DNA of 64,000 nucleotides from Gammaproteobacteria bacterium (GTDB lineage: Bacteria; Pseudomonadota; Gammaproteobacteria; Arenicellales; Poriferihabitantaceae): the NCBI GenBank assembly GCA_024644945.1, contig JAHEGU010000001.1, forward strand, positions 89,937 to 153,936. The letters are read 5' to 3'. Shown piece by piece: positions 11,316 to 51,999 of the stretch (the first letter of the stretch is position 1; the number at the start of each line of letters is the position of its first letter). Under the pieces are notes generated by a model. That model ran no database searches, had not been told where the DNA came from, and saw only the letters and a list, made by a program, of their open reading frames with translations. A program made the position numbers and the translations under genes.

Positions 11316-12599
11316 ATGAACAACGTACACCCATTATGCGATCCAAATCGACTTGCGGCGGTTGATTCTTATGAGTGTTTAGACACTCCGCCAGCGTTCG
11401 AGTATGACGCGCTTACCGAAATCGCCGCAGAAATTTGTGGGTTTCCGCTCGCGTTTATCAGTTTAATCAAAGAGCGCCGGCAGTGGTTCAAATCCAATTA
11501 TGGTGCGCCTGAAATTACGGAGATCCCTACCGAAGTCTCCGTCTGTTCCACTACGATTTGTGCAAATGAAATACTGTATGTTCCAGATCTGACCGAAGAT
11601 GAGCGGTTTAAAGATTATCCTGGAGTCACTGGCGAACCCTATATTCGGGCCTACTGTGGCATGCCATTGATTAATCCTGAAGGGTATGCGCTGGGCACGC
11701 TTTGCATAATGGATTTTGAACCGCACGCATTGACACCTGCGCAGCGCGAAACGGTGCGACGATTGTCGAGTCAAGCGATGTCATTGTTGGAGCTGCGCAG
11801 GCAGTTGATTTCTCGCGACGAAATGCTGAAAAAGGTAAACGTAGCAAGAAATGAAGCGGAAGTTGCACAGGCAAGATCCGAAGAAATATTGACGAGTGTG
11901 TTTCCGCCAGAAATCGCAACAGAACTCAAAAACGAAGGCCGAGTAGAGCCAAAATACTACGAACTGACAACCGTTATGTTTGCCGACTTTAAAGACTCTA
12001 CGCTGTTGACTGAAGGCATGGAGCCGGCGCGGTTAATAGAGCATTTGAACGAAAACTTCGCCATTATTGATGAAGTCGGACAGGCTAACAGAGTCACCAC
12101 ACTGCGTACTGTCGGTGACGGTTGCCTCTGCGTGGCGGGCCTGCCTGAACCCAATCGGACTCATCCACTAAACATGTGCCTGATGGCGCTCCAATTGCAG
12201 CAGAATATTGCGGAAAAAAATAGGCAGAGAGAAAAGTTCCGCCTTAATCCCTGGCAGCTACGTATCGGCATCAATACTGGATCCCTGGTTGCGGGTGTCG
12301 TGGGTACAACAAGATATACCTATGATGTATGGGGTAGTGCAGTCAACGCCGCGGCGCGACTTGAACAGGCTTGCGAACCTGGGCGGATTAACATATCGCC
12401 CAGCACATTGCACTATGTACAGGATTTCTTTGAGACCGAACCAAGGGGAAATATTTCGGTTAAAAACATGGGCAAGATAGACATGCATTTTTTGAACAGG
12501 ATAAAACCCGAGTATTCATTGGATGAGCAAGGATTTGCCCCAAATCAAGATTTGCTCAAGAAGGCAGGACTGGAAACGAATGGAAAAAGATTCGTCTAA
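11316..12599 (+). CDS. GAF domain / class III adenylate-guanylate cyclase
   Basis: The 427-aa ORF has a GAF-like N-terminus (LYVPDLTEDERFKD...GMPLINPEGYALGTLCIMD). Cyclase motifs follow: TVMFADFKDST, LRTVGDGCLCVAG, RIGINTGSLVAGVVG, YDVWGSAVNAAARLE. Confidence 0.85.
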   Translation: MNNVHPLCDPNRLAAVDSYECLDTPPAFEYDALTEIAAEICGFPLAFISLIKERRQWFKSNYGAPEITEIPTEVSVCSTTICANEILYVPDLTEDERFKDYPGVTGEPYIRAYCGMPLINPEGYALGTLCIMDFEPHALTPAQRETVRRLSSQAMSLLELRRQLISRDEMLKKVNVARNEAEVAQARSEEILTSVFPPEIATELKNEGRVEPKYYELTTVMFADFKDSTLLTEGMEPARLIEHLNENFAIIDEVGQANRVTTLRTVGDGCLCVAGLPEPNRTHPLNMCLMALQLQQNIAEKNRQREKFRLNPWQLRIGINTGSLVAGVVGTTRYTYDVWGSAVNAAARLEQACEPGRINISPSTLHYVQDFFETEPRGNISVKNMGKIDMHFLNRIKPEYSLDEQGFAPNQDLLKKAGLETNGKRFV

Positions 12600-17193: not shown

Positions 17194-17856
17194 ATGAGAA
17201 AGTATACAAGGGTTTTCCTAACCGGAGCGGTGATGTTGACAATAACAGCGTGTTCAATGTTTGGTCATTCAGATGTTGAAACTGCACCTTACAGAATTTC
17301 AAAAAGTGATGGTCAGATTGAGATACGTCACTACGAAATGCTTGTTTTGGTTTCTGCGTCGATGAATGGAGATTTGGATAACAATGAAGGTGCCTTTAAC
17401 AAATTATTTAGATATATCTCTGGTGAAAATACAGGTGCGGCTAAAATAGCGATGACTGCACCTGTTCTGATGGATCCTGCCGGTTCGGAAGGTCAAAAGA
17501 TTTCGATGACATCGCCAGTTATAGTAGACCAGGATGAAAATTCCAGAAACTGGACCATGTCCTTTGTGTTACCAAGTACATTTACTTATGAGACGGCTCC
17601 ACGTCCGACAAATCCCGATGTAACGCTGAATAAAATTACCGATCTTGAGGTGGCAGCGATTCAATTCAGCGGAATCTTAAACAATAAGAATGCGCAAAAG
17701 TACAGAAGCAAACTTGAGACATGGATCTTGGATAACGGTTATAGAATTACAGGCCCTTACCAGACCGCTGGTTATAACCCACCCTGGACATTGCCGAACA
17801 TGCGCCGTAATGAAGTATTAATTCCGATAGAGAAAGCATCCATAGTCGAGGGCTGA
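17194..17856 (+). CDS. SOUL/HEBP heme-binding family lipoprotein
   Basis: The 220-aa ORF has a lipobox (MLTITAC). SOUL-like blocks are present: ETAPYRI...IEIRHYE, MTAPV, AAIQFSG, AGYNPPW. Confidence 0.75.
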   Translation: MRKYTRVFLTGAVMLTITACSMFGHSDVETAPYRISKSDGQIEIRHYEMLVLVSASMNGDLDNNEGAFNKLFRYISGENTGAAKIAMTAPVLMDPAGSEGQKISMTSPVIVDQDENSRNWTMSFVLPSTFTYETAPRPTNPDVTLNKITDLEVAAIQFSGILNNKNAQKYRSKLETWILDNGYRITGPYQTAGYNPPWTLPNMRRNEVLIPIEKASIVEG

Positions 17857-17981: not shown

Positions 17982-19730
17982 CTACTCATTAAGATCCGAG
18001 TAGAAATTTCTTCTAACCTCCTTGATCAAACGCGCAATCTGCGACTTAACTTCTCTCTGCTGGCGTATGAACTCTGATACTAATTGTTTGCGCTCCAGCA
18101 TCAGATTATCTTTGAGCTTACGATCATCTTTATGGTCGAGCTCTTTTAAGCTGCCGCTGGTATCAACTAACTTTGGTAAGGTGGTCGAAATGTGGTTTAG
18201 GGTAACTTTCCTGATTCGTCCACACATGTCTTCAAATTTCTGCTTCAGTGCTGCGCTTTCCACTGTTCTTAAACATCGAGACAGTTGAATTTTTACATCC
18301 AAGTAGTGCTCGGTGTCTTCAAGTGAGATCTGCTCCAGTATATCGGCACCCATATCCTTAGCTGTTGGTGTAACAAATACCTTGTCTAGAAATTGATTCC
18401 AGCGATTAGTAGCATCAATTAAAAGAGCGAGGTCGTTTGCATCGATGTGATCCCTGAACATTACCTGGTGTCCGGCGTCACGATATTGATCCGGCGTCTC
18501 GTTAACACTATGGAGCTGGCTTAAAATGCGGTCAACAAGGTCGTCCTGATTGCGGTCTTCCAGTTCACGTCGCCACTCCAGTTTACAGCTGCAATCGATT
18601 TCGTCAAAATGGCTGGTTTTGCCGGTCGCATTGTACTCGCGCAGGCCTTGGTAGCATTTTTCATCGCAGCTTGGACAGTTGTGAACATATTCTCGAGGAG
18701 GTGGATACAATTCGAACCCTCCCGCCCGAACGTCTCCCAGAAAGTGAGTCTGACGAATCACTTCGAATAATGACCAGGTCCATGGCGATCGGTAAAGATT
18801 TGCTTCGTTGAGACGCGCGACGGTTGTGTTGTCCTGGACGGAGACAGGCTCAATGCTAACCGCCTTCACGCCGTGTTCGAAGGCGAATTTTATCGACCGC
18901 ACGCAATCGTCAATCGCTGTTTGTTCGTCCAGGAACAAGGGTTTCATCAGGCAGTATGCAAGCGCCTCGACCTCGAATTCACGCATTACCGCGAAAGCAT
19001 TAATGTAATCCGACAGAGTGTTTCTTTTGTTTACACAAAACAATCGAATATCGTCGTTGACGCTTTCGAAACCCACTCCGATCTGTAGTCGTTTGTTACC
19101 GACCGCCTCCCGTACTGAGGCGATTGACTTGCGGGTCACAAGCTCGGGTAGTGATTCGAAGATAATCATTTCGACATCTTCGTTTGACGCTACCGTTTGC
19201 AATAATTCGTGCCGAACTGCGACAGGTATTTCCGACGACGACAACAGAGAACCACCATTGTAAATGGCGACCACTTTTGTGTCGGAGTAATCATAGCTAA
19301 AGAATGCTTCGCGAAATCCTTCGATATAGTCGGCCATCGATACGCAGTTTTGGGTGTCCATTCCGCTCACGTGCCCGCACATCAGACAACCACCACCGTT
19401 AGCGCGTGCCCACGTACATCCCTTACCGCGAACATAGAAGATTCTTCGTTGGGTGCGTTCTCCATCCAATAGATGAGGCTGTATGCTGACACCCCCTAAT
19501 GCGCTGGACTTCGAGCTCAGATCTGATTCGTGATAAAGTCGTGATTTGGATTGTTCGTTGATCGATTTGACCAAATCCAGGGCCTCTAGTCGGCGCGTCT
19601 CAACTGAGCTGTCCCTCAAATGAGCGGGGTAGACAGCACTTGGAAATTTCTTCTCACCCCAGGCCAATGTGCCGGTGGTGATTGCGGCGGGTATGTCGAC
19701 TGGGTCCGGTGTCTTTGGTTTTTCGGGCAT
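17982..19730 (-). CDS. Radical SAM superfamily enzyme with non-canonical CX9CX2C motif (RaSEA/TIGR01210-like by recollection) plus a unique ~175-aa C-terminal helical domain
   Basis: The 582-aa ORF contains GKGCTWARANGGGCLMCGH (C-x9-C-x2-C). It has an AIYNGGSLLS SAM-binding-like motif and a TIM-like core. A Cys-rich post-core region follows (HNCPSCDEKC...DCSCKLEW). Residues from about 410 to 582 are paralogous to ORF 21647-22276. Confidence 0.65.
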   Translation of the reverse strand: MPEKPKTPDPVDIPAAITTGTLAWGEKKFPSAVYPAHLRDSSVETRRLEALDLVKSINEQSKSRLYHESDLSSKSSALGGVSIQPHLLDGERTQRRIFYVRGKGCTWARANGGGCLMCGHVSGMDTQNCVSMADYIEGFREAFFSYDYSDTKVVAIYNGGSLLSSSEIPVAVRHELLQTVASNEDVEMIIFESLPELVTRKSIASVREAVGNKRLQIGVGFESVNDDIRLFCVNKRNTLSDYINAFAVMREFEVEALAYCLMKPLFLDEQTAIDDCVRSIKFAFEHGVKAVSIEPVSVQDNTTVARLNEANLYRSPWTWSLFEVIRQTHFLGDVRAGGFELYPPPREYVHNCPSCDEKCYQGLREYNATGKTSHFDEIDCSCKLEWRRELEDRNQDDLVDRILSQLHSVNETPDQYRDAGHQVMFRDHIDANDLALLIDATNRWNQFLDKVFVTPTAKDMGADILEQISLEDTEHYLDVKIQLSRCLRTVESAALKQKFEDMCGRIRKVTLNHISTTLPKLVDTSGSLKELDHKDDRKLKDNLMLERKQLVSEFIRQQREVKSQIARLIKEVRRNFYSDLNE

Positions 19731-19809
19731 GGTGCGTTCCTAGTATTTTTGTTTGAGCCGACATAAAAAAGTCGGATTACGCTCAACACAATCCAGTTAA
19801 CGTCGCATC

Positions 19810-19867
19810 ATTGCCACTATTGCCACTTTTTTCTTTTCTGAGCTCCTCCAATCACACCTCCAATCAC
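19810..19867. promoter_or_regulatory. Two sets of tandem direct repeats upstream of the radical SAM gene (candidate regulator sites)
   Basis: attgccact occurs twice (19810-19827). cctccaatcac occurs twice with a 12-bp period (19845-19855, 19857-19867). They lie 80-137 bp upstream of the start codon at 19730. Confidence 0.3.
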
Positions 19868-19972
19868 CGTCTTTATAATGTGGATTAACAAATGTTCCTA
19901 TCAGACTGGTTGATCACGTTATTTTATGGTACGGAATTTTACTTCCGGACGCAACTTTTTAGCATTCAGCCC

Positions 19973-20040
19973 CGAAAAACTGAAAAAACCGGGAGAAACA
20001 AGGAAAACCGGGGGAAAATCGGAAAAGACCCGTTTTCACA
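19973..20040 (+). repeat. Degenerate tandem cluster of family A-like units
   Basis: The sequence is gaaaaactgaaaaaaccgggagaaacaaggaaaaccgggggaaaatcggaaaagacccgttttcaca. Confidence 0.45.
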
Positions 20041-20056
20041 GGCATTTTGAATTTTG

Positions 20057-20072
20057 TGGTCAGAGTAAAAAA
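20057..20072 (+). repeat. Family C intergenic repeat
   Basis: The sequence is tggtcagagtaaaaaa. ggtcagagtaaaa is shared with 50193-50205. Confidence 0.4.
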
Positions 20073-20094
20073 GCCTTCAATCGGGCCAGACCAC

Positions 20095-21227
20095 TCAGCA
20101 TTTTCCTGCTTTCAAGTAGTTAGCACTAGCCCGCGCCACGGCATCAAGATCCAATTCGAATCCGAGTCCGGGGCCATTTAGAACCGGCAGCTGGCCGTTT
20201 CGCAGGCTGAGTCGGGGGATTCGATGATGTCCCATGCCAGGAGGTGGTTCATGTACTGGTTGCCGTCATCCAGATTTGCGATGGTTGCAGCCGCCTGGTT
20301 GGCGGCGCAGGTGGTGATGCCGGTCTCGTAAAGACCATGGATACATATATTGATGCCCGCGGTCTCGGCCACATGGGCGGTCTTGATAAACTGGCTGATG
20401 CCGCCCGTTTCATGAAGGCCGAGGACGATCAGACCGGCTGCATTCTCGCGGCAGACGTTAAAAGCGTCCTGGGGCGTGAACACCAGCTGGTCCGCAGCAA
20501 TTCCTACCGGGCTGGAAGCGCGGACCTGGTTGAGCGCCGACAGACTTTCGCTGTCTGTTGGCTGTACGACGAATTCAATTTCAAACGCCGCAAGTTTCTG
20601 GATCATGCGTTTCGCCTTCAGTGGGTCCCACTTTTCATTGGGGTCGATGCGCAGGCGTCTCTCTGGCCCTATAGCGGCGCGGGTCTGCTGGACGATGGCG
20701 AGATCGAGTGCATCACCCCTGCCCACCTTGACGTAAATCACCTCGCAGCCGTCCTCAGAAAGCTGCTTGGCGTGGGCAGCAATTTCCTCCGCAGTTTCAC
20801 CCTGTGGAAATCCGAAATACTGGATGTCATCGCGCAGCGCGCCGCCAAGCAGTTCGTGTACGGCATGACCAGTTGCTTTTCCTATCACATCCCAAAGCGT
20901 CATCTCGATGCCAGCGAACACCTGCCCCGCATAGCGTGGCGAACTGCAGGTTCCGAATGCTTGGAACAAAGCGTGGTAGCATTCGCGCATCAGCCTGGTG
21001 TTCTCAAACGGGCTTCTACCAACGCAGTAATTCGCAATCAGTTGCAGGTAATCCTGAATTGCGGATGCGGACGGTGTGCCGATACATTCGCCAAATCCGG
21101 TTACACCCTGTTCGGTATGCACTTCCACCAGGATCACCACGGCACCGTCCACTGAACCTTGAGCCCAGTGGTAGGGTGTTAGATAGGGTATTTTCAGCGG
21201 GGTTGTGCGTATTTCGGTGATCTTCAT
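20095..21227 (-). CDS. Enolase-superfamily enzyme (mandelate racemase/muconate lactonizing family) with an apparent 1-nt frameshift near the 3' end
   Basis: The core contains VIYVKVGRG, LRIDPNEKWD and other MR/MLE motifs. The annotated frame stops at 20178. The -1 frame continues as ...RLSLRNGQLPVLNGPGLGFELDLDAVARASANYLKAGKC, the canonical MR/MLE C-terminus, down to the stop at 20095-20097. The shift maps to the G5 run at 20214-20218. Confidence 0.8.
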
Positions 21228-21484
21228 CGGGGGCTTAGAGTTATTTTTCCGGTTAATAAATCGGTTACTGCCAAAGGTCTAGCGGCTGCTTCGCTAAGAA
21301 AAATTCCGGTAAGAGTTATTTCTCAGTTTGTTCTCGGATACCTGTCTCAATTATTACCGCTAGTTAGGCGTTAGTTACAAGTACTAGTTAGTTCTGACAG
21401 CTTTTGTGCAGTTAAATTTTTCTGTTTATTGAGTTTAGTCGGTAGAAAGCAAACACGCATGATCTCTTTTCGTGGATCAAGTGA

Positions 21485-21513
21485 GATCAAAGGGGTCAGT
21501 GTCGTTTAATTTG
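21485..21513 (+). repeat. Family B variant repeat (CAAAGGGGTCAGTGTC..TTAATT)
   Basis: The sequence is gatcaaaggggtcagtgtcgtttaatttg. It is nearly identical to the unit within 30412-30456. Confidence 0.55.
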
Positions 21514-21646
21514 TCAAAGCCAGCCAAAGCATTTAGCCATTTGCTAGTTTGTAACATTTTGTAATGATTGGGTAGATTTTCGCCACTCGGCGATATAACG
21601 AGAGTATTCTTGACATAGTTAAGGTTTAAATAAGTCGCAGAAAGTT

Positions 21647-22276
21647 ATGGAGGCTTTAAATAAAGCAGGAGTCGAGAATGGTACCGGGCACCAGGTATTG
21701 TCTAGGTATCGAATCGATGTAAATCAGCTCGCTCTTTTACAAGGTGCGATTAGTCGCTGGGATCAGTTTCTAGGTGAGCTATTTATAGTTCCGACACCTC
21801 GTAATTTGACTGCCGACGCAATAAACCTGATGTCTCTTGAAGATACCGAGCACTACTTAGATGTAAAGATTCAACTCTCTCAATGTCTAACAGTGGTGCA
21901 GAGCGTAGAGCTGGAGCAGAAATTTGAAAACATATGTGGCGCAATCAGAAAGGCCACCTATCACCAAATTTCAACTAACTTACCGCAGTTTGCTGATAAC
22001 AGCCGCAGCTTAGTAGAACTCGCACGAAAGGATGATCGCATTATTACTGATAACGATGTTTCGAAGCTCGGCTGGAAGCGTTCGCCAGACCTTGAGGTGA
22101 GTCAAGAGTACAAAGATTGTCTGGTACAAGAGCGCAGACAACTAAAATCAGACTTTATCCGCCAGCGGAGTAGGGTTAATTCGCTGATTGAGCGTCTAAA
22201 AAAGGAGATCAATCGAAGTTTTTACTCTCGCCTTGATGAACCAATATCGGAAAACGCTAGTACTAGTAACCGGTAA
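21647..22276 (+). CDS. Stand-alone paralogue of the radical-SAM C-terminal domain (unknown function, predicted helical)
   Basis: The 209-aa ORF is colinear with residues ~410-582 of ORF 17982-19730. Shared blocks include GHQV, SLEDTEHYLDVKIQLS (identical), QKFE..CG.IRK, ER.QL.S.FIRQ and R.FYS.L.E. Hand alignment gives about 77% identity between nt 21836-22038 and the reverse complement of 18121-18323. Confidence 0.7.
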   Translation: MEALNKAGVENGTGHQVLSRYRIDVNQLALLQGAISRWDQFLGELFIVPTPRNLTADAINLMSLEDTEHYLDVKIQLSQCLTVVQSVELEQKFENICGAIRKATYHQISTNLPQFADNSRSLVELARKDDRIITDNDVSKLGWKRSPDLEVSQEYKDCLVQERRQLKSDFIRQRSRVNSLIERLKKEINRSFYSRLDEPISENASTSNR

Positions 22277-22345
22277 TCAAAAAAATTAAAAATCCAAAAA
22301 TCGTGTCGGAGTGGTTTCTACGAAAAGTTAAAATAATTAAAATCA

Positions 22346-22378
22346 GGTCGGAGTGATTTTTGAGAAATCACTCCGACC
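22346..22378 (-). terminator. Perfect 14-bp hairpin built from two inverted family B units; likely intrinsic terminator between convergent genes
   Basis: The arms are ggtcggagtgattt (22346-22359) and aaatcactccgacc (22365-22378), with a 5-nt loop. On the minus strand the hairpin is followed by a U-rich tract (tgattttaattatttt). Confidence 0.6.
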
Positions 22379-22428
22379 CCTTTACAGGCATATCTGCCGG
22401 ATTTCTTCAAAAACATCTGGTTTATATT

Positions 22429-25400
22429 TCAGATCGCGGCAGTTTCCAGTTCTCTAATAGACTTAAACATTTTTTGCCTGATGCCAAAATCAATCAATTG
22501 CTGCCGGCGCGCAATGGTTGATTGTGTCACCTGGTCACGGTAGATACTCTCTAGTATCCTGGAACGCTCGATATAAAACTGATTAAATTTACAATTTTCG
22601 GTTTCATTTTTCTTCAGCCCTTGCCGAAGTCGATCCAGGTTATCCCATTCCCGATTGTTCAGCGCGGCCTGGATTGCGTCATGGTAAAACCAGTTAATGT
22701 TGTGACCGACAGAGCCCTCCTGCAAAATCGCCTCGGCCTCTTCGACCAGTGCACTGCGCTCATCAGGATCTTCAGTGACCAGCAGTAGCGCACCGAGTAT
22801 GGCGGGCCCATGAAAGCCATGCCCACGCTCTCGACTGACATTCGCGGCTTCAGTTAGAGTCTGGTGCAATTCCTCTCGCTCGCTAAATACATCCCTGCGC
22901 CGAACATCGAAAGACTGGACTGCTGCCAGGAAGCTCAACGTTCCCAAATTACGCGCAATTTCCATGGCATTTTCATTATGATCTTTCGCCAGCTCCACTT
23001 CGTTCATTTCCGAGTAAACCCAGCCGAGCAATGCGCTGGTATTCATCTCTCCTCGCAAATGGCCACATTCTCGAGTAGCCCGCAAGCCTTCAATACCATC
23101 CTCGCATGCCTCGGAAATTTCAAGCTGATACAGTCGACTCCATCCGATCATCGCCCGGTTGGCGGCATAATGGGTGGTAAATCCGTGGCGTAATGAAAAT
23201 TCGCAGCATTCCATAAATTTGAGGGTCGCAGTCTTCATCTCTCCGCGAACATAGTAAGCGTCACCCAGACCACCAATTGCCCTCGCCTCTTTTTCAAGGG
23301 AACCCGCCTGACCAGCATATTCCAGAGAACGTCCATGCTCTCCAAGGCAACCCTTCACGTCGCCTTTTGCGAAATAGATATTGCCGCGTATATTGCATAA
23401 ATCAGACAATGCGTCGATATCATTCAATTCGAGCGCCAGGGCTTCGGCGCTGGCGAGATGGAACAGTGCGTCATCATACTGGTCCTGGAATCGAAAACAT
23501 GCTGCGATGCCAAGCTGGATTTGAAGCTCAACAGACTCGAGGCCAGCTGAATCCAATTCTCTCATCCTCGGGCCAGTCATATCCCGCACTTTGGGAATGA
23601 CCTCGAGTGCATTGTGGAAATGGTCCAGCGCTTCGACTACGGCCGATGTCGAAAGCGCAGTCTCGCCGGCAATCCTGGCGTAATGTAACCCCCTGTCGAA
23701 CAGTCCAGCCCGTATATAATGATAGGAAAGCAAGTCAGCCAGCTTGTGACCCTGGCGATATAGTTCCTCAAGATAAACAGCGGCACGTTTGTGAAACCTG
23801 GTCCGGCGCTCCCTGAGCAGACTGGCATAAGCGGCGTCTTGGATTAACGCATGCTTGAATTGAAAACTTGCAGCGGTGCCTTCACCAAGTCGATAAACCA
23901 GCCCCGAATCCACTAAGGCGTCAAGCTGCCGGCTCAATTCATCATCTTCCAGACGAGTAATTGCACCCAGTAGCGATCTGCCAAACGAGCGCCCTATTAT
24001 AGCTGCCGCCTGGGCCGACCGGCGTGCTGTACCAAGACCGTCGAGCCGGGCATTGAGAGAATCGGCAAGGGACCCGGGAATGTCTATCTCTTCATCAGAG
24101 CCCGATCCATTGCTTGAGTTCAATATGGTCCGCGCCAGCTCTTCCACGAATAATGGAATGCCATCGGTACGGTCAACAATTTTACGTGCCAGCTGATCCG
24201 ATATTTCCGGGCCCATCAGACTCTGAATCATGTGGTGACATTGCTCAGGATTGATTCGATTGAGAGACAGTAAATGAACATGAGACAGATCCGTCCAGAC
24301 CTGGCGGTATTCGGGTCGAAAACTCAGCAGCATCAGGACGGGTTTGTCGGAAACGGAGAACACCAGGTTATTGATCAGTTCCTGGGTAGTGGCATCAACC
24401 CAATGCAGGTCTTCAAAAACCAGAATCCATGGTTCGCCATCTGGACTGCTGGTGAGAATTCGGGAGACCAATTCCAAGGTCTGTTGTTTTTGCAATTGTG
24501 CGTTGGCAAGCACTGGATCGGTATCAGAGGGGCCGTACAGCAAACGCCGCAATAATCCTTCTGCGCCTTCGTACTGTATCCCGTGATGTTCCAGAAACCG
24601 GGTAATCCAGTTCTCCGTGGCGTCCTCGTATTGCGGTTGCTGGGCACGTAAAAACTCAACAAAGGGATGGAGCGACCTGCTCTGATGATGCGGAGAGCAT
24701 TGCAGGATGCGCGTCCGGCTGCGGTCAAACTCACTGGCTACCTGAATCAGGCGGGATTTTCCAATACCCGGCTCCCCGCATAACATTATAATTTTTCCTC
24801 TGCCATGCCTCGCGTCTTCCATACAATCTTCGAGCAGCACCCGTTCGTGCCGACGCCCGACAAAAGGCGTCAGCTCGCTGCTGCTGATGGCTTCAAACCG
24901 GCTTCCTGAACTTGCCGCGGATTCCACCTCCCAGGCCAGAACCCGGTCATTCAGGCCTTTCAGATCAAGCTCTCCAAGCTCACTGTAATTAAACAGCTCA
25001 CCAGCCAGAGCCCTGGTTTCGTCTGCGATGACGACCCTTCCCGGGCTGGCGACAGACTGGAGACGGGAAGCCAGATTGGGTGTCTTTCCAACCGCAGTAC
25101 TTTCTCTGGAGGCACCGCTGCCCACTACCTCGCCGACAATAACCGGACCGGTGGCGATACCAACACGAACGAAAATGGGTTCGGTATCCGATGCCGACTG
25201 GTTTAACACCTGAATCCGTCTCTGGATTTCCAGTCCAGCGCTGATCGCGCGCTCTGCATCATTTTCATGGGCCATGGGATAGCCGAAATAGCATAGGATT
25301 CCATCGCCCATGTAACGCGCCACATAGCCATCAAAATGGTTGATGACTTCCGTGCAGGTCTCCTGATATCGGCGATTAATCCTGCTCAAGTCTTCTGGAT

Positions 25401-25707
25401 CCATACGTGTCGACATTGCGGTGGAATCAGCCAGGTCACAAAACATCACAGTCAGCTGACGCCGTTCGGCGCCGCTATTCGGCTTGGAGACGGTTTGGGA
25501 AAGAGCAGAACCCGCGGTCTGGTGCTCAGGCAGTGCATCAGGCTTGTCTGCCACAGCACCGAGCGCATTCCCGCAGCCCCCGCAAAACCTGTCGCCCGGA
25601 TCATTTTTGAACCCGCAATGCGCACATGCCGACGCTAATGCTGCACCACACTGCAGGCAGAATTTACGCTCGACCTTATTGTCGGTGCCGCAGGAATCGC
25701 AGTGCAT
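22429..25707 (-). CDS. Multidomain signalling protein: double zinc ribbon / class III nucleotidyl cyclase / AAA-STAND ATPase / TPR
   Basis: The 1092-aa ORF starts with MHCDSCGTDN..CLQCG...CAHCG...CGGCG. Cyclase motifs follow (LTVMFCDLADST, YMGDGILCYFGYP, RVGIATGPVIVGEVVG, GKTPNLASRLQ). A P-loop GEPGIGKS comes next, then a long TPR-like helical C-terminus. Confidence 0.85.
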   Translation of the reverse strand: MHCDSCGTDNKVERKFCLQCGAALASACAHCGFKNDPGDRFCGGCGNALGAVADKPDALPEHQTAGSALSQTVSKPNSGAERRQLTVMFCDLADSTAMSTRMDPEDLSRINRRYQETCTEVINHFDGYVARYMGDGILCYFGYPMAHENDAERAISAGLEIQRRIQVLNQSASDTEPIFVRVGIATGPVIVGEVVGSGASRESTAVGKTPNLASRLQSVASPGRVVIADETRALAGELFNYSELGELDLKGLNDRVLAWEVESAASSGSRFEAISSSELTPFVGRRHERVLLEDCMEDARHGRGKIIMLCGEPGIGKSRLIQVASEFDRSRTRILQCSPHHQSRSLHPFVEFLRAQQPQYEDATENWITRFLEHHGIQYEGAEGLLRRLLYGPSDTDPVLANAQLQKQQTLELVSRILTSSPDGEPWILVFEDLHWVDATTQELINNLVFSVSDKPVLMLLSFRPEYRQVWTDLSHVHLLSLNRINPEQCHHMIQSLMGPEISDQLARKIVDRTDGIPLFVEELARTILNSSNGSGSDEEIDIPGSLADSLNARLDGLGTARRSAQAAAIIGRSFGRSLLGAITRLEDDELSRQLDALVDSGLVYRLGEGTAASFQFKHALIQDAAYASLLRERRTRFHKRAAVYLEELYRQGHKLADLLSYHYIRAGLFDRGLHYARIAGETALSTSAVVEALDHFHNALEVIPKVRDMTGPRMRELDSAGLESVELQIQLGIAACFRFQDQYDDALFHLASAEALALELNDIDALSDLCNIRGNIYFAKGDVKGCLGEHGRSLEYAGQAGSLEKEARAIGGLGDAYYVRGEMKTATLKFMECCEFSLRHGFTTHYAANRAMIGWSRLYQLEISEACEDGIEGLRATRECGHLRGEMNTSALLGWVYSEMNEVELAKDHNENAMEIARNLGTLSFLAAVQSFDVRRRDVFSEREELHQTLTEAANVSRERGHGFHGPAILGALLLVTEDPDERSALVEEAEAILQEGSVGHNINWFYHDAIQAALNNREWDNLDRLRQGLKKNETENCKFNQFYIERSRILESIYRDQVTQSTIARRQQLIDFGIRQKMFKSIRELETAAI

Positions 25708-30602: not shown

Positions 30603-32363
30603 CTATTCAAGTCCGATAGCACTCAAGCTATTCAGATAGGGTTCCAATCCGCCGGCATGTTTTGTCGGCAGGTTTTTTTTGAGAAAGTCGATCGACAGAT
30701 CTGGTTTCGCCACCACTGCCGCAGCAAGAGACTGTTTCGCCTCGTCAATCCGACCCAGATTAGCCAGCGCGGAAGCCTTGACGGCATGTGGCCAGTAGCC
30801 TATTGCATTTGGAATCTGCAAGGTATGGTTGGCCCACTCCAGCGCCGCTTCATATTCTTGGCTTAGAATGTAATTCAGGGCATGGACAATTGTGAAGGCC
30901 CACAGCATCGGATCGCGCGGACTCATCGCGACCGCATGTTTGGTTGTATGTTTGGATTCTTCGAGCTCCCCTGCGAGCGATAACGCAAACGCGAGCCCGT
31001 GATAAGCCTGGGCAAAGCAGGGGTTGAGCTCGATCGACTTTCGCAGTGCCGCGATCGACGCGTCATGATCGCCCAGCATCATATAAATGCGGCCGATAGC
31101 GAAATACGATATGGCATCTCTGTCATCGCATTGCAGCGCCATCTTTGCGGCTGTCATACCTTCCCGCAGCAGTGTATCGGGATCTTCCGCGCTGCCCAAA
31201 ATCACGAACTGATAGCAACAATAGGCGTAGTAGGCATAAGCCGGAGCAAATTTAGGGTCCGCTGCGGAGGAACGTTTAAACAACTCCAGTGCGGTCTTAA
31301 TATTTTCATCTTTGTAGGTCCACATATGCCACAATGCCCGCTGATAAAGCTCCCACGCGTCGAGATTGTCGGGCGATTTGCTCAGCGCGCGTTCGCGCTC
31401 AAACGCATTTAACTCGGGCTCAAGCGCCGAAGCAATGACCATGACCATCTCATCCTGCAGATCGAAGATATCCTCCATTTCGCGATCATAGCGCTCGGCC
31501 CAGACATGGTGCCCGGTTTTGGCATCGATGAGCTGCACGGTCACACGCACGCGGTTGCCCGCCTTGCGCACGCTGCCCTCGAGCACGAAGCGAACGCCGA
31601 GCTCCTTGGCCACCTGGCGTACATCAATAGCCGTCCCTTTGTAGGAGAACGTGCTTTCACGAGAGATAACCTTGAACGAGCGAATCTTGGACAAGGCGGT
31701 GATCAGATCCTCGGTAATGCCGTCGCCAATAAAGTCAAGATCCGAATCCTGGTTCATATTGGTCAGCGCCAGTACGGCGATCGAGGGTTTCTCCGATGCG
31801 CCTGATGTAGTTAGCTCATCAAGCATGTGCTGCCTTTCTTCTGGCTTCCAATAAAACACGTGAACCGGTCGACCGATGTTCTTATACTGTTGTTCCCCGC
31901 CATCGGTGAATGTTGCCTCCTGTTTTCCCAGGATTTGATCGTAAACAGAAGCCGAGATACAGATACCGCCCTCGGGCGCACTGGCCTCGAGCCGGGCCGC
32001 CAGATTGACGCCGTCGCCATACACTTCACCTCGGTCCTCGATAACGTCACCGATGTTGACACCGATCCTGATCTGAACTTTCTTGTTATCGTCGAGCGAC
32101 TGGTTCTGGATATGCAACTCGGTTTGGATCTTAACCGCGCAATTAGCTGCTGTAACGGCGCTCGAAAACTCCGCCAGAATAGCGTCGCCGGCGTAACGTA
32201 AAACCGCACCGCCGCTGTCTTTAATCTGACTGCTGGCATAATCCAGAACCTCCATGGCCCGGCGATGGGTACCTTCCTCGTCCCCACCGGTCAACCGCGA
32301 ATAGCCGGCAATGTCGGCATATAAAATAGCGGTTAACTTGCGTTTGTAGGCTTCGGTCGTCAT
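30603..32363 (-). CDS. Class III adenylate/guanylate cyclase / TolB-N-like domain / TPR protein (paralogue 1, no obvious TM)
   Basis: The 586-aa ORF has cyclase motifs (LTAILYADIAGYSRL, RYAGDAILAEF, RIGVNIGDVI, YGDGVNLAARLE). A PSIAVLALTNMNQD...FIGDGITEDLITALS...LEGSVRK block follows, then TPR repeats. Confidence 0.85.
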   Translation of the reverse strand: MTTEAYKRKLTAILYADIAGYSRLTGGDEEGTHRRAMEVLDYASSQIKDSGGAVLRYAGDAILAEFSSAVTAANCAVKIQTELHIQNQSLDDNKKVQIRIGVNIGDVIEDRGEVYGDGVNLAARLEASAPEGGICISASVYDQILGKQEATFTDGGEQQYKNIGRPVHVFYWKPEERQHMLDELTTSGASEKPSIAVLALTNMNQDSDLDFIGDGITEDLITALSKIRSFKVISRESTFSYKGTAIDVRQVAKELGVRFVLEGSVRKAGNRVRVTVQLIDAKTGHHVWAERYDREMEDIFDLQDEMVMVIASALEPELNAFERERALSKSPDNLDAWELYQRALWHMWTYKDENIKTALELFKRSSAADPKFAPAYAYYAYCCYQFVILGSAEDPDTLLREGMTAAKMALQCDDRDAISYFAIGRIYMMLGDHDASIAALRKSIELNPCFAQAYHGLAFALSLAGELEESKHTTKHAVAMSPRDPMLWAFTIVHALNYILSQEYEAALEWANHTLQIPNAIGYWPHAVKASALANLGRIDEAKQSLAAAVVAKPDLSIDFLKKNLPTKHAGGLEPYLNSLSAIGLE

Positions 32364-32510: not shown

Positions 32511-33143
32511 CTACACGCCTTCTTTTGACCAATCTATCGCACGACGATCGCCGACATCCAGCCACCCGGCAAAGGCGAGTAACGGCTTATCGAAAGTACG
32601 CATCGCGTGCATTTGCCAGCTGTTGTGAAATATTAAATCTCCAGGCGAAACATCAAACCAATCGCCCTCGTCGAGACACCACTGAGAGCCTGGGGTGAGT
32701 AACAGATACACCTCTCTAGGCTCATGGTGATGGCCCGGGTACACAACATCTGGGCCGAGCAACAACAGGCCTCCACGAGGAACTGCACAAAGAATAGGGG
32801 CATCCGGCCCGGAAAAACCCGCATAGGCGTAACCGGCTAGAAAAGAGGAGCTGCTATTGCGTTCAGTGTAGTGTGAGTTTTGTGACCATCTCAGTTCGCC
32901 CACGACCCGAGAGAATTTATTGGCGATTTCCGCCAGCTCGTAGCGTGCCGCAAGTGACAATGCCTGATCGAGATGGCGCAGAACCGGCAGAGCATTATCA
33001 AAGCGGGATTCATCATCCTGTCTTTCTGTCGAAACCTGGTTCGGCACCTGAATTTCACAACCCGTAACCATATCCCTGCGGGCTGTAATCGCTTTCCAGG
33101 TGAGTCTGTTGAGCTTTTCGAGTTCGTTTATGTCGGCATTCAT
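32511..33143 (-). CDS. Cupin protein, DddL-like (DMSP lyase family) candidate
   Basis: The 210-aa ORF has a cupin metal motif YPGHHHEPREVYLLL and HNSWQMHAMRT followed by PLLAFAGWLD. From memory this pattern resembles the DMSP_lyase (DddL) family. It was not verified. Confidence 0.45.
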   Translation of the reverse strand: MNADINELEKLNRLTWKAITARRDMVTGCEIQVPNQVSTERQDDESRFDNALPVLRHLDQALSLAARYELAEIANKFSRVVGELRWSQNSHYTERNSSSSFLAGYAYAGFSGPDAPILCAVPRGGLLLLGPDVVYPGHHHEPREVYLLLTPGSQWCLDEGDWFDVSPGDLIFHNSWQMHAMRTFDKPLLAFAGWLDVGDRRAIDWSKEGV

Positions 33144-33182: not shown

Positions 33183-35081
33183 TCACTCGGGGACTCCCGC
33201 CTCACGAAGCGCGTCGAGATAGTTTTCCAGATCGGCTTCATACAGATAGTTAGCTTCTCTGCGTTCTTTAGCAAGGGTTATTTCCGGGGTGATTGCCAGC
33301 GCTTCTTCAACCGACCAGGCAGCGTCATCCAATTGACCAAGCCGGACCAAGACTGCCGCGAGAGTCAGGTGGGTACGATCAAATCCCGGGTTGAGCTCAA
33401 TACTTTTCTCAAGCGATGCCAGCGCATCCGTATATCTGCCCATCAGGAAAAGAATCCTTCCCTCGACACCGTAATACACACCTGTGACCTGGATGTTTAA
33501 CTGTTTAGCGTGCTCAAGAGCTTCTAGTGCCTGCTCATATTGCCCCGAGTAGCTCAAGATGAAGGCCAGTGCCGCGTGCCCGTCAGCGTAATCTGGAAAC
33601 ACTTCAATAGTCCGCATTGCCGCCTCTACTGCGGCCTCATGCTGCCGCTGAGATAGGTAAAGAATACTACGAGTGAGGTAAATCTGCGGGATGCCATCAT
33701 CCAGTTGTAATGCTCTGTTGGCGTACTCCAGGCCCAGCTTAATCGACTCCTCCCGATTTGGTGTCCAATAGAAATTTACCTCTGTCCCATAGGTCAGGGC
33801 AATATTGGAATAGGCTCGCGCATAGTTTGGATCAAGCGCGACCGCCTGCTTGAACATCTCGCGCGCGGCTACCATCGATTCACGCGAATAATATGTGTAC
33901 TGCTGGAGTCCGCGTAACAACATGTCGTAGGCATCAGGATTGGTAGTTTCTACCTTAATCAGTCTTTCTTCTTCGGTCGGGGTAAGGTTTACTTTTAGCT
34001 CCTCGACGATCTTACGATTGACATCGTCCTGCAACGAAAATATGTCGGCCATGGTTCCATCAAATCGATCTGCCCAAATATGACCACCAGTTTCACCGTC
34101 CACGAGCTGTGCGTTGATTCGGATTTGATCGTTAACGCGACGCACACTGCCCTCGAGTATGTACTTCACGCCGAGTTCCTGCGAGACCGTGCGCAGGTCC
34201 ATCGACCTTCCTTTGTACGAAAAACTGGAGTTGCGCGCGACCACGAACAGCCCCGATATTCTCGATAAATCGGTGGTCAAGTCCTCGGTAATACCGTCAG
34301 CAAAATACTCCTGGTCAGGATCGTCACTCATGTTGTCGAAAGGCAAAACCGCAATCGAGGGTCTTTCGGATTGTGTTTGTTCCTTGGATTCAGAACTGAT
34401 CGGCTCTTTGGACTGCCAGTTGACAACACCGTAGGTGACTGCAGCGATAACAGCCAGTGCAACCAGGGCTATCATAACCTTGGGCCTCGGCGAGCTCTCG
34501 GCGGGGCCGCTACTTCGGCCGGGCTCGGGAAGCGGGACAGATGCCCCGCGCTTCAATGCGACCCGATAAACGCCAACGGGCTCTTCGAACCCCTTTAATT
34601 CCTGTTCACCGATATTCTCAAGCTCGAACGGCAGGCGCCTCGGAATCGCTTCGCGGACCGCTGGCGTAATGCATATTCCACCAGAATTCGCCAGTTGCTC
34701 CAGGCGCTGCGCCAGCACCACCCCGGCACCGGTGATCGTATTGTCTGCAATAACGACTTCACCCATGGCAATCCCGACCCGTACCAGCGGGCGGATATTA
34801 TCATCGAGTTGTGCATTGAAATTAGCCTGATCAGATAGGAAAGAGAGTGCCGCAGAAACCGCATCCGAGGCCCGGTTGAACTCGGCTAGCAGCGCATCAC
34901 CACGGAGTTCACGCACCTGACCATGATACTTAGAAATCGTTTCAGCAAAACGCTTAAAAGAACCCTGGATGCGCGTGTGAGCTTTGTGCTCATTCTGTTG
35001 TACCAGGGCGGTTGACCCCACGACATCCGCGTGCAGGATAACTGCGAGTTTGCCCGATAACTGTTTAGCTGCCATCAGCAA
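33183..35081 (-). CDS. Class III cyclase / TM helix / TolB-N-like / TPR protein (paralogue 2, membrane anchored)
   Basis: The 632-aa ORF has cyclase motifs (LAVILHADVVGSTAL, LRGDALLAEF, RVGIAMGEVV). A TM segment VMIALVALAVIAAVTYGVV follows, then PSIAVLPFDNMSDDPDQEYFADGITEDLTTDLS, then TPR repeats. Confidence 0.85.
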   Translation of the reverse strand: MLMAAKQLSGKLAVILHADVVGSTALVQQNEHKAHTRIQGSFKRFAETISKYHGQVRELRGDALLAEFNRASDAVSAALSFLSDQANFNAQLDDNIRPLVRVGIAMGEVVIADNTITGAGVVLAQRLEQLANSGGICITPAVREAIPRRLPFELENIGEQELKGFEEPVGVYRVALKRGASVPLPEPGRSSGPAESSPRPKVMIALVALAVIAAVTYGVVNWQSKEPISSESKEQTQSERPSIAVLPFDNMSDDPDQEYFADGITEDLTTDLSRISGLFVVARNSSFSYKGRSMDLRTVSQELGVKYILEGSVRRVNDQIRINAQLVDGETGGHIWADRFDGTMADIFSLQDDVNRKIVEELKVNLTPTEEERLIKVETTNPDAYDMLLRGLQQYTYYSRESMVAAREMFKQAVALDPNYARAYSNIALTYGTEVNFYWTPNREESIKLGLEYANRALQLDDGIPQIYLTRSILYLSQRQHEAAVEAAMRTIEVFPDYADGHAALAFILSYSGQYEQALEALEHAKQLNIQVTGVYYGVEGRILFLMGRYTDALASLEKSIELNPGFDRTHLTLAAVLVRLGQLDDAAWSVEEALAITPEITLAKERREANYLYEADLENYLDALREAGVPE

Positions 35082-35351: not shown

Positions 35352-37880
35352 CTAATCGTCTGTGATTTTCGGTGCATAGTCGGCACCCCGCGCGTCGTGA
35401 ATTGACTGGACTATTTGTTTAATCGCCGGGTATTTTCGAAGAATCTTCAGCATCGAACGCATCGAGATTCTCAGTACTATGCAGGGTGACTTAGCTTTTA
35501 TGGTGGCGGACCTGATATGTCGTCCGCTTTCAAACTCCGACAGTAACGAAGACTCTCCCATAATATCCCCATCGCTCAAATTTGCCACGTGATGACCGTA
35601 ACTTAGTGCGTCGGTGCGCCATACCGCGGCTTCGCCAACGATGATGATATAAAAATGATCGCCAGTCTCGTAGGCGCCCATAATAGTGTCACCCGGCAGA
35701 AAGGTAATACAGGTGGCATTTTTTTCCAGATCACTTCGGTCTTCTTCAGACAAATCGTCGAACAACTCTAGTTCATCCAACATTTCGGCAACGCTATTTT
35801 CATCACTTGATATGGTGGGTTTCATCTCCCTGATACGCTCAATTATCTTATTCACTTTATATTGTGTTGAAACATAACCCTTAGCGCTCAGGTCACCATG
35901 TTCGTATTGTTCATTAACATGGTTCCAGCCACTGTAGATGGTTGAGCGCCTGGCCAAAAGATCCAGATACTGGCGGTAAAAACTCGGAAAATGCGCTCGG
36001 GCCATTTTCAGCCTTTTGCGATAGTACTTTTTTCTTTTCTTATAGAGTTTGGTGACTACCCCTCGTGCCCCAAGCTCAAGGTCATCCTGGTTCTTGAGCG
36101 CAGTGATGACAGCCTCGCATATCAATACGTGCGCAAGGTTACGTTGTAATTGTTGTACCATTCGAGTGCCTTGAAATCTTGACATTAGCGCCGACGACCA
36201 GCGCCGTTCACGTATAGTGCGCAGAAACATTTCTTCGAGGCGCTGAAAATAACTCTGCTTACTACGCTTGCGGTGGCTCTCGATTTCGCGACCTCCTTGG
36301 CGCAGATCCTCGCGCGTATCATAAAGCTGGTTAAGCATATCCAAGTAAATATACTGACTAATGTAACCAATTTCGTAGAGACTTTTTAGTTCTTTGCGTT
36401 CGATATGATAGGCACGCAGTAAGGCGATAAAATCATCATCGCGGTGTTCGTCACCCTCTTCGTCAAGCCACCCTAGCCCAAACCCAATTTCAATATCGTT
36501 CAAAGTTCTGTTGACATCAGTCTCGGGTGCTAACTTGTTATTCAGTAATTTAGTAAAATTATCGTGCAGCTTGTGGCGTGCATCGATCAGCACGCTGCGC
36601 AGTTCCAATTCCTCTCCCTTTGATAGTTCATTCATGCCGAGACGCTGCATCAACGGGCGGATGGTGGGTGCGCTCACCAATAGCGTGAACAGCACCACAC
36701 CGATGGTGAGATCAAACAGAAACTGCCTTTCGGGCAGGTCACTTGGAATCGAAAGCACTACCGCTATTGCCAGTCCACCTTTGAGTCCGCCCCACCACAT
36801 GATATGGCGCTCATTCATGGTCACCTTTGGCAGGCGAAACCAGCGTGTGGTCAATGGTACAAACGTGTATATCGACAGTGCGCGCGCTATCAATACCAGT
36901 GCCACCACGATAAATACGGGTCCGATACGAGATAAAACGTTGTCAGTATTGACCGATAATCCCACCATCAAAAACAACAACGAGTTACAAGACAGAGCAA
37001 TCACTTCCCAGGTTTCGCTTATAGAATGCGTGACATCCTGGCGAATACGTGACATTCCAAACAGACGCAAAGCGATGGCCGCGCCGACAACCGCCATCAC
37101 ACCTGATATGTGCAGGGCATGTTCACCGACAACAAAAGCGGCATAGGCAATAATGATAGACGTGGTCAGGATTACGCTGACATTTGCTTTCATCCTGTAT
37201 ATCAGCTCGCAGGCAATAAAACCGAGTAAACCGCCGAAGATAGCGCCGCCGAAAAATACGCGTAAAAATTCCAGGAATACGTTATCTATATCGGATAGTC
37301 CGATAGCACTGCCTTCAACAGCGATAGCGAGGAGTATCGAGAAAGTGACGATGGCTGTCGCGTCATTGAACAACGACTCACCCTCAACCAGAACGTTCAA
37401 TCGATTTGGTGCGCCGAGCTCCTTGAATAGCGCCACTACGGCAACAGGATCGGTAGCTGAAATCAATGCGCCGAAAACTAGCGCAATGATCAATTTCATG
37501 TCCAAAGCAAGCCATACCCCAAACCCCACAATAAATGTCGATATCAACATCCCCGGGATCGCCAGAATTAGGACGGCGGGTAAATCCTTGGTTAACTGTC
37601 GCGCATCCAACGCGAATCCTGACTCGAAAATGAGCGCTGGTAGAAAGATAAACAGCATGACCTCTGGACTGAGCTCGAAATCCTTCAGCGGCAGCAACAA
37701 CGGCCAACTTTCCGCAAGATTACTCAGCAATACGCCGATAACGACTAATACAACGGTAAAGGGGACCGGTAGTTTTCGACAGACGCCGGTGACCAGCATC
37801 GCAATGCCCAACAGGACAACCAGGACAAATACGGTTTCAGAAACTGGCATGGCTTTATCGTCTTCTCGACAAAACCACAA
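35352..37880 (-). CDS. CPA1 (NhaP-type) Na+/H+ exchanger fused to a C-terminal cyclic-nucleotide-binding domain
   Basis: The 842-aa ORF has an N-terminal ~420-aa polytopic exchanger (ATDPVAVVALFKELG, GESLFNDATAI). A ~270-aa linker follows. The C-terminal CAP-type CNBD contains FLPGDTIMGAYETGDHFYIIIVGEA...GDIMGESSLLS...RSATIKA. The start is possibly the ATG at 37850. Confidence 0.85.
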   Translation of the reverse strand: MWFCREDDKAMPVSETVFVLVVLLGIAMLVTGVCRKLPVPFTVVLVVIGVLLSNLAESWPLLLPLKDFELSPEVMLFIFLPALIFESGFALDARQLTKDLPAVLILAIPGMLISTFIVGFGVWLALDMKLIIALVFGALISATDPVAVVALFKELGAPNRLNVLVEGESLFNDATAIVTFSILLAIAVEGSAIGLSDIDNVFLEFLRVFFGGAIFGGLLGFIACELIYRMKANVSVILTTSIIIAYAAFVVGEHALHISGVMAVVGAAIALRLFGMSRIRQDVTHSISETWEVIALSCNSLLFLMVGLSVNTDNVLSRIGPVFIVVALVLIARALSIYTFVPLTTRWFRLPKVTMNERHIMWWGGLKGGLAIAVVLSIPSDLPERQFLFDLTIGVVLFTLLVSAPTIRPLMQRLGMNELSKGEELELRSVLIDARHKLHDNFTKLLNNKLAPETDVNRTLNDIEIGFGLGWLDEEGDEHRDDDFIALLRAYHIERKELKSLYEIGYISQYIYLDMLNQLYDTREDLRQGGREIESHRKRSKQSYFQRLEEMFLRTIRERRWSSALMSRFQGTRMVQQLQRNLAHVLICEAVITALKNQDDLELGARGVVTKLYKKRKKYYRKRLKMARAHFPSFYRQYLDLLARRSTIYSGWNHVNEQYEHGDLSAKGYVSTQYKVNKIIERIREMKPTISSDENSVAEMLDELELFDDLSEEDRSDLEKNATCITFLPGDTIMGAYETGDHFYIIIVGEAAVWRTDALSYGHHVANLSDGDIMGESSLLSEFESGRHIRSATIKAKSPCIVLRISMRSMLKILRKYPAIKQIVQSIHDARGADYAPKITDD

Positions 37881-51919: not shown

Positions 51920-51999
51920 AGAACCAAAAAGCAAAAAAGGCGACAAGAGATTAACAATTAATCCCTACGCCACCTTTTCTAGTTACTGTTTTATTTCAG

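Follow-up and report, generated by a model that had tools for sequence, protein, structure and literature searches.

What does it mean for an enzyme when its C-terminal domain also exists as a free protein, encoded close by and in the opposite orientation? This arrangement is found in a 64,000-nucleotide (nt) stretch of gammaproteobacterial DNA (GenBank assembly GCA_024644945.1, contig JAHEGU010000001.1, positions 89,937 to 153,936; hereafter the window), in which a radical S-adenosylmethionine (SAM) protein of 582 amino acids (aa) and a 209-aa protein carry the same helical domain on either side of an enolase-superfamily gene of the MR/MLE type. The initial annotation of this DNA had seen a domain duplicated as an inverted stand-alone gene and a possible three-gene unit. 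We come to favour, on balance, a different account, in which the two copies are old paralogues, one of which became fused to a RaSEA-like enzyme and would serve there as an interaction module that docks a partner. In the following, loci are designated by L numbers and proteins by P numbers.

Two diverged copies of one domain face each other in the window

The C-terminus of the 582-aa protein is homologous to the 209-aa protein, as had been claimed. BLASTP aligned residues 419-582 of the former with residues 13-198 of the latter at 51% identity (94/186 positions, E 2e-56) with a single gap of 22 residues, and exactly two copies of the domain are present in the 64-kb window. At the DNA level the two copies form an inverted repeat with arms of 370 nt (18106-18475 and 21684-22053) that are ungapped and 72% complementary. 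Within these arms, the reverse complement of 18121-18323 differs from 21836-22038 at 47 of 203 nt (76.8% identity), so that the earlier alignment by hand, which had given about 77%, was exact. The longest exact match between the arms is 14 nt, and the peptide block that is identical in the two copies is encoded with 5 synonymous differences.

The synonymous divergence (dS) between the two window paralogues is about 0.7 (0.6-0.8), which is below some of the values obtained across genomes, and it is 1.6 for a fused and a free copy that share one genome (GCA_051008855.1). Recent gene conversion between the arms was considered as a cause and rejected, given that no conversion tract was visible in the codon-level alignment and no identical run exceeded 14 nt; codon usage or composition in common may account for the lower value. 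The inverted-repeat geometry is that of two diverged paralogues lying head to head, and is neither a recent duplication nor an invertible segment.

The large protein is a RaSEA/Elp3-like radical-SAM enzyme

The 582-aa protein matched the NCBIfam model TIGR01210 (RaSEA, the radical SAM protein of archaeosine biosynthesis) with 205.3 bits (E 1.3e-60), and residues 98-395 covered model positions 18-308 of 313. Since this score falls just short of the equivalog cut-off of 212.15 bits, we regard the protein as a relative within the TIGR01210 family and not as an equivalog. No Pfam model, including PF04055, matched the protein. Three cysteines (C105, C115 and C118), which constitute a Cx9Cx2C cluster motif, are invariant across 16 homologues, as is a second group of four cysteines in the core (C352, C355, C380 and C382). 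The AlphaFold model of the core has a predicted local distance difference test score (pLDDT) above 90, and Foldseek retrieved radical-SAM enzymes with a probability of 1.0 and E values of 1e-6 to 1e-3, with Elp3 first, followed by TsrM, the pyruvate formate-lyase (PFL) activase, MgmA and LipA; LAM was also among these matches (probability 1.0). With a three-Cys [4Fe-4S] motif and a radical-SAM fold, the protein belongs to the radical SAM superfamily, and the family model, the invariant motif and the Elp3/PFL-activase-like fold together uphold the identity first assigned to it. The N-terminal extension in front of the core is partly conserved (KFPSAVYP, RRxxALDLVK) and contains a long helix (residues 42-71) in the AlphaFold model. 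We therefore see in the large protein a RaSEA/Elp3-like radical-SAM enzyme of bacteria, extended by 97 aa at the N-terminus and by a tail at the other end.

The substrate of archaeal RaSEA is preQ0-Lys-tRNA, and the enzyme is inactive unless complexed with ArcS (PMC11298593). The 582-aa protein resembles RaSEA in its nearly full-model match to TIGR01210 and its Elp3-type radical-SAM fold, and the dependence of the prototype on ArcS finds a parallel in the appended, putative interaction module. In contrast to RaSEA, the protein comes from a gammaproteobacterium and not from a euryarchaeon, and it has an additional 97-aa N-terminus and a C-terminal linker and helical domain of about 170 aa, both of which RaSEA lacks. 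A scan of 42 window proteins, which covered the window only and not the whole genome, revealed neither a TGT nor an ArcS-type domain. Because no TGT/ArcS-type gene was seen among these proteins and the host is gammaproteobacterial, we do not classify the protein as RaSEA proper, and because of the differences in score, host, partner genes and extra domains its substrate is probably not preQ0-Lys-tRNA. The enzyme probably carries out a SAM-dependent radical reaction on RNA or another macromolecular substrate, and not archaeosine synthesis. The likeness to Elp3, the catalytic subunit of Elongator that also has bacterial and archaeal forms, lies in the best structural matches of the core (8pty_C, 8asw_C, 6ia8 and 5l7j; E 1e-6 to 1e-4) and in the general plan of a radical-SAM enzyme, RNA-modifying in Elp3 and putatively so here, with a domain appended at the C-terminus. 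The appendage of Elp3, however, is a KAT/GNAT acetyltransferase and that of the 582-aa protein an orphan four-helix bundle, and sequence identity is only 12-16%. Our literature search returned no paper on bacterial RaSEA homologues and none under the name TIGR01210, and we could find no function assigned to bacterial members of the RaSEA/TIGR01210 branch.

A distant radical-SAM relative (33% identity), the only one in IMG/VR, is encoded at L019:7022-8236 between phage genes (CI-type repressor, RecT) and a LysR regulator. This is probably a prophage edge and is uninformative on function.

The shared domain defines a family of predicted four-helix bundles

The domain is all-alpha and about 190 aa long. 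It had no significant match in Pfam (E up to 10; best E 0.056), NCBIfam or PADLOC, nor in a profile comparison with PDB sequences (best E 0.09), and Foldseek searches against PDB and BFVD yielded nothing more specific than generic helical bundles and proteins of the BAR-like type (E 0.12 at best in either library). AlphaFold, using 18 sequences, predicted the 209-aa protein as a closed four-helix bundle (pLDDT 78; predicted template modelling score 0.69) with helices at residues 25-45, 56-84, 87-128 and 153-191 and a disordered loop at 132-149. The HMM and structure searches that had been suggested for this domain thus agree with the first impression of an unrecognised helical domain: it is not an annotated Pfam family, and its structural matches are generic.

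Members of the family share the signature W(D/E)xFL ... SLEDTExYLDVKIQLSxC ... IRKxTY together with SPDLExSQEYKDC, and the SLEDTEHYLDVKIQLS block shows extreme conservation across the family. A profile search of 1.84 billion representatives yielded 21 clusters, and in all but the fused cluster the domain stands alone in proteins of 160-264 aa; in word-indexed searches the 209-aa protein had 16 close stand-alone homologues and 19 that were more distant. The 209-aa open reading frame (ORF) is the normal stand-alone form of the domain and is monocistronic. The family is found in uncultured Gammaproteobacteria, and one more distant member is annotated from a metagenome-assembled genome (MAG) of the Acidiferrobacterales. 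The hits furthest removed in the profile search, proteins of about 240-264 aa (P0044, P0045, P0047-P0050 and P0052; E 2e-10 to 6e-4), have an N-terminal hydrophobic stretch that, judged by eye, resembles a transmembrane helix, which suggests a membrane-anchored branch of the family.

Several roles for the domain were considered and set aside. Metal binding was rejected on the grounds that distant family members do not conserve the three cysteines of the domain and most tails lack the third, and nucleic-acid binding on the grounds that the isoelectric point (pI) is near neutral to slightly acidic; with cysteines unconserved in distant members and a near-neutral charge, neither activity is indicated. 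The domain is absent from viral contigs, and an association with defence or phages was likewise rejected, as there was no viral-contig match and PADLOC recognised only the neighbouring cyclase.

The fused tails go back to a single, older fusion

Four other fused proteins were identified (P0017-P0020; 582-605 aa). Their sister clade (P0021-P0023) has no helical domain and ends in a basic C-terminal tail with two tandem Arg-rich repeats, GVDRRS.LDRRVVNDAEYFESGGVERRT (pI about 10; L003:~9300-9539 in P0021), and relatives beyond this clade have no C-terminal tail. In a neighbour-joining analysis of the domain, the fused tails are monophyletic and nested among the free proteins (bootstrap 0.855), and none of 200 bootstrap replicates paired the window tail with the free gene next to it. 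These two observations argue for a single older fusion and show the neighbouring free gene to be no recent local duplicate. The proposal of a duplication as an inverted stand-alone gene was therefore right about the homology and wrong about the local event. One fusion in the ancestor of a small clade joined the domain to the C-terminus of a RaSEA/TIGR01210-type enzyme via a disordered linker.

A region of about 26 aa had been described as an insert in the stand-alone copy. All free homologues, however, have this region, as do the fused proteins P0018-P0020; it is hence ancestral, which means that the tails of the window clade (window, P0017 and L010) have undergone a deletion of 22 aa that removed the conserved SPDLE.SQEYKDC motif and the third conserved Cys. 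Core, tail and free gene are all under purifying selection, with ratios of nonsynonymous to synonymous divergence (dN/dS) of 0.12, 0.18 and 0.28-0.33, respectively. The tail has changed at a higher rate than the core since the two were joined.

The enclosed MR/MLE gene is a decaying bystander

The gene between the two copies was correctly recognised as MR/MLE, and both domains of this family are present (PF02746, E 3e-16; PF13378, E 1e-35). It is 95% identical to its intact 377-aa orthologue in L004 up to residue 339. A 1-nt deletion near 20211 then stops the ORF at 20178, short of the position 20095 that the intact frame would reach, at a cost of the last ~38 residues; this points to gene decay, or possibly to a sequencing or assembly error. 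The L010 gene (L010:8577-9495) has suffered an independent internal deletion of about 208 nt and is split into two ORFs, which leaves L004 with the only intact copy among the three.

L010 belongs to a MAG of an uncultured gammaproteobacterium, the only match among 185,579 species genomes, and shares synteny with the window (nucleotide identity about 85-91%); its radical-SAM and free genes are intact. The radical-SAM, MR/MLE and free genes are syntenic and identically oriented in the window, L004 and L010, genomes that are separated by a dS of 0.2-0.4. A SOUL haem-binding gene (17194-17856) and the gene for a 1092-aa zinc-ribbon/cyclase/AAA/TPR protein (22429-25707) are both absent from L010; these differences are lineage-specific indels at the borders of the radical-SAM and free genes.

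Elsewhere the trio is not conserved, as the comparison of gene neighbourhoods called for in the initial annotation revealed, and fused and free genes occur in unrelated contexts. The fused enzymes of L001 and L002 are flanked by AceK and Usp and by a Na/Pi cotransporter and an Exo_endo_phos protein, respectively, and neither has an MR/MLE gene beside it or a free-domain gene nearby. The free genes of L005/L009, L007, L008/L013, L011, L014, L015-17 and L018 lie in mutually unrelated contexts, and no radical-SAM or MR/MLE gene was found beside free genes outside the window clade in the fetched flanks (up to 10 kb); a 379-aa neighbour in L015 without Pfam match was considered as a candidate and is not a radical-SAM protein. 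Across the loci compared and in genome and metagenome scans, neither the fused enzyme nor the free gene had a recurrent neighbour. A fused protein (P0019) and a free one (P0006) are encoded on separate contigs of one MAG, GCA_051008855.1. Since this genome and L010 each hold both forms, both divergent fused lineages that could be examined keep a free copy. The proposed three-gene unit thus fails on an MR/MLE gene that is frameshifted in the window, split in L010 and absent beside the fused enzymes of L001 and L002. The MR/MLE gene is an unrelated, decaying and dispensable bystander outside any unit.

The free gene and the enzyme gene have different upstream elements

Upstream of the free gene lies a direct-repeat box with the consensus TTTGTAACA(T/A)(T/A)TTGTAA(T/G)GAT. 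It is shared by the window gene and 14/15 free-gene loci (L004-L017, in each case upstream of the free-domain gene), including members with only ~41% protein identity. The distance to the ATG is 98-99 nt in most loci, 114 nt in four and 487 nt in one. The exact pattern was found nowhere else in 211 kb of loci, and it occurs once in the window against 0 expected. Downstream of the box, TTTTCNCC and GTATTCT blocks are conserved, and no RNA structure was found there (-0.7 kcal/mol), for which reason the box is most simply a putative protein-binding operator. CpxR recognises the consensus box GTAAA-N4-8-GTAAA (PMC5063474). The free-gene box reads GTAAC-N5-GTAAT, likewise a tandem direct repeat at one helical turn, but it matches 8/10 consensus bases and appears dedicated to one gene family. 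Judged by its motif, this resemblance is a lead only, and a dedicated box could equally mean a regulator other than CpxR, or autoregulation.

The radical-SAM gene is preceded by about 220 nt that are conserved in L001 and L002 although the genes further upstream are unrelated; leader identity is 80% and 70%, respectively, compared with 61% at third codon positions of the core. It comprises a promoter-like element (TTGCGT at 19954-19949, a 17-nt spacer and TACCAT at 19931-19926), a leader of about 190 nt with an invariant GGAGGTGTGATTGGAGG block and, about 30 nt ahead of the ATG and just before the ribosome-binding site, a terminator-like hairpin with a T-run (19795-19763). The leader matched no Rfam family, covariation is thin (2 compensatory pairs in 5 sequences) and the folding z-score is -0.94. 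We consider it a candidate, and no more, for an attenuator or riboswitch-like leader. An upstream precursor peptide was also considered; the 79-aa ORF before the L002 enzyme is not conserved elsewhere, nor are the mini-ORFs in the leader.

Other features of the window

The repeats and the hairpin between the convergent free-domain and cyclase genes have a common motif, GTCGGAGTG(A/G)TTT, and a terminator-like site lies at 22379-22345; the element probably terminates transcription in both directions, or else is of the REP-like type. Its coordinates and those of the features described above are collected in Table 1.

Table 1. Features of the fused and free domain copies and of their surroundings, in window coordinates
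Feature	Position	Strand	Evidence or description
RaSEA-like radical-SAM protein, 582 aa	17982..19730 (including stop codon)	-	ORF, TIGR01210, homologues P0017-P0032
N-terminal extension, residues 1-97	19440..19730	-	outside TIGR01210 match; subfamily-specific
Radical-SAM core, residues 98-395	18546..19439	-	TIGR01210, invariant columns, Foldseek
Flexible linker, residues 412-428	18447..18497	-	pLDDT <50; variable in alignment of homologues
Fused helical-domain copy, residues 419-582	17985..18476	-	BLASTP, family alignment, profile hit of P0017, dN/dS
Conserved 5' region of radical-SAM gene	19731..19954	-	conserved in L001:2020-2252 and L002:5570-5797
MR/MLE (enolase-superfamily) gene, disrupted	20095..21227; ORF ends early at 20178	-	Pfam, L004 comparison, DNA alignment
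Box TTTGTAACATTTTGTAATGAT	21548..21568	+	TTTGTAA direct repeat at 10-nt spacing (TTTGTAA-N3-TTTGTAA), upstream of free-domain ATG
Stand-alone helical-domain protein, 209 aa	21647..22276	+	ORF, homologues, profile search, AlphaFold
Intergenic repeat and hairpin	22281..22379	.	two 42-nt direct repeats (family D1) and a 15-bp stem

The window contains five genes with adenylate/guanylate-cyclase domains (11316-12599, 22429-25707, 30603-32363, 33183-35081 and 48208-49971), four with TPR arrays and one with a GAF domain, as well as a Na+/H+ exchanger that binds cyclic nucleotide monophosphates (35352-37880), and its cyclic-nucleotide signalling repertoire is unusually dense. The cyclase domain of the 1092-aa protein matches Pycsar PycC models in PADLOC. 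A second MR/MLE paralogue (50867-51946) lies about 750 nt from a divergent gene pair (52693-56522) that encodes a TauD-family dioxygenase and a 902-aa adenylation/carrier protein resembling nonribosomal peptide synthetases, with a 4-nt overlap; together these genes may form a small-molecule tailoring cluster. A dimethylsulphoniopropionate lyase gene at 32511-33143 is consistent with a marine origin of the host.

Discussion

Considering that the appendage varies between sister clades, that the archaeal prototype depends on a partner, and that the tail has lost a family motif yet kept its helical scaffold, we propose that the tail would act as an accessory module for protein-protein interaction or oligomerisation, by which the radical-SAM core would be docked to a partner. 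The likeliest partner would be the free paralogue or its own binding partner, and the free protein, under its own regulatory box, might recruit the enzyme or titrate it. That the enzyme and the free protein are functionally linked would follow by analogy with Rosetta-stone pairs: the domain is fused in one clade and free elsewhere, and both forms are kept in two divergent genomes. The analogy differs in that the usual argument joins two different proteins, whereas here the fused lineages also keep a free paralogue, and in that there is no operon linkage of fused enzyme and free gene. What confidence we place in this account rests mostly on its evolutionary and structural part; the step to a heteromeric partner, which leans on that analogy, is taken by itself perhaps rather doubtful.

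Several observations weigh against our proposal. The box is absent upstream of the radical-SAM genes, which makes these and the free gene separate transcription units under different controls. Fused and free genes have no cis motif in common and are unlinked outside the window clade, so that co-regulation is not indicated, and their adjacency within the window clade might be due to chance or be a relic. In the full-length AlphaFold model the tail region is predicted with moderate confidence (pLDDT 50-75). The domain tree is a neighbour-joining tree of about 197 columns with 200 replicates, and the position of the tail clade among the free clades is weakly supported in it (0.635).

It is possible, if unlikely, that enzyme and free protein have no functional link at all, the domain being a generic self-association or scaffold unit, the free protein having a separate job (perhaps in a stress regulon, in view of its box), the fusion being an oligomerisation handle and the adjacency coincidental. 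The many unrelated contexts of the free genes, with a dedicated box that radical-SAM genes lack, the unlinked pair in GCA_051008855.1, the loss of the most conserved loop motif of the family from the tail and the purely generic bundle and BAR-like matches in Foldseek would all fit this. Yet each of the two divergent fused lineages that could be inspected keeps a free copy, both families, very rare as they are, turned up here only in uncultured bacteria (Gammaproteobacteria where the source names them), and a fusion is itself a classic signal of a functional link. By contrast, we give hardly any credence to the notion that a local inverted duplication made a functional cassette of radical-SAM, enolase-type and free-domain genes serving one chemistry. 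The three genes lie next to each other, with conserved synteny, in the window, L004 and L010, and by our estimate chance alone is unlikely to place two paralogues within ~2 kb of each other in a genome that spans several Mb. This is outweighed by the independent lesions of the MR/MLE gene in the window (1 nt) and L010 (~208 nt), by the fused enzymes of L001 and L002 that have neither neighbour, by flanks of free genes outside the window clade (10 kb at most) that contain neither radical-SAM nor MR/MLE genes, by a tail and an adjacent free gene that are not sister sequences, and by intergenic gaps of 447 and 419 nt, a divergent orientation and a conserved upstream element of its own for each gene.

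By analogy with activases, the domain might instead be a protein substrate that the radical-SAM enzyme modifies in cis (the tail) and in trans (the free protein). The PFL-activating enzyme is among the structural matches (TM score 0.60 on the target) and the SLEDTEHYLDVKIQLS block is extremely conserved, but the best structural and sequence relatives, RaSEA and Elp3, modify RNA, an enzyme fused to its own substrate would be unusual, the conserved Cys are missing from distant family members, and no glycyl-radical or RiPP (ribosomally synthesised and post-translationally modified peptide) signature is present; we hold this to be very improbable. Next to no weight falls on phase variation, in which the arms would serve as recombination substrates and inversion of 18.3-21.8 kb would swap the tails. 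Codons are colinear between the arms, so that an in-frame swap is geometrically possible. Against it stand arms of only 72-77% identity with 14 nt as their longest exact run, the lack of a recombinase among the 42 window proteins scanned, an identical orientation in three genomes that are 0.2-0.4 apart in dS, and the lack of a visible gene-conversion tract. The locus does not look like an invertible segment on any of these counts, and the initial annotation had already judged an inversion of this kind unlikely.

Returning to the tail as an interaction module, a bolder and quite improbable version would have a lineage-restricted helical adaptor replace the ArcS partnership. The free adaptor, induced through the box (possibly by a regulator of the envelope-stress type), would heterodimerise with the tail and so switch or redirect the radical modification of RNA or some other macromolecule, and the enzyme would be gated by a riboswitch-like leader.

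New here is a bacterial enzyme of the RaSEA family to which a novel domain is fused, together with a free paralogue of this domain. We regard it as a modest lead and not as a new three-gene system; the enolase-type gene should not be used for guessing the chemistry of the enzyme. From the locus emerges a new family of proteins of about 190 aa, with a signature by which it can be recognised and an upstream box of its own. The locus also offers an accessory domain that is fused to the enzyme and exists in a free, independently regulated form as well, a candidate partner for the enzyme. The conserved 5' leader with its terminator is a candidate ligand- or factor-responsive switch and possibly a hint at the pathway, and the tiny, defined phylogenetic distribution is a further handle on this enzyme.

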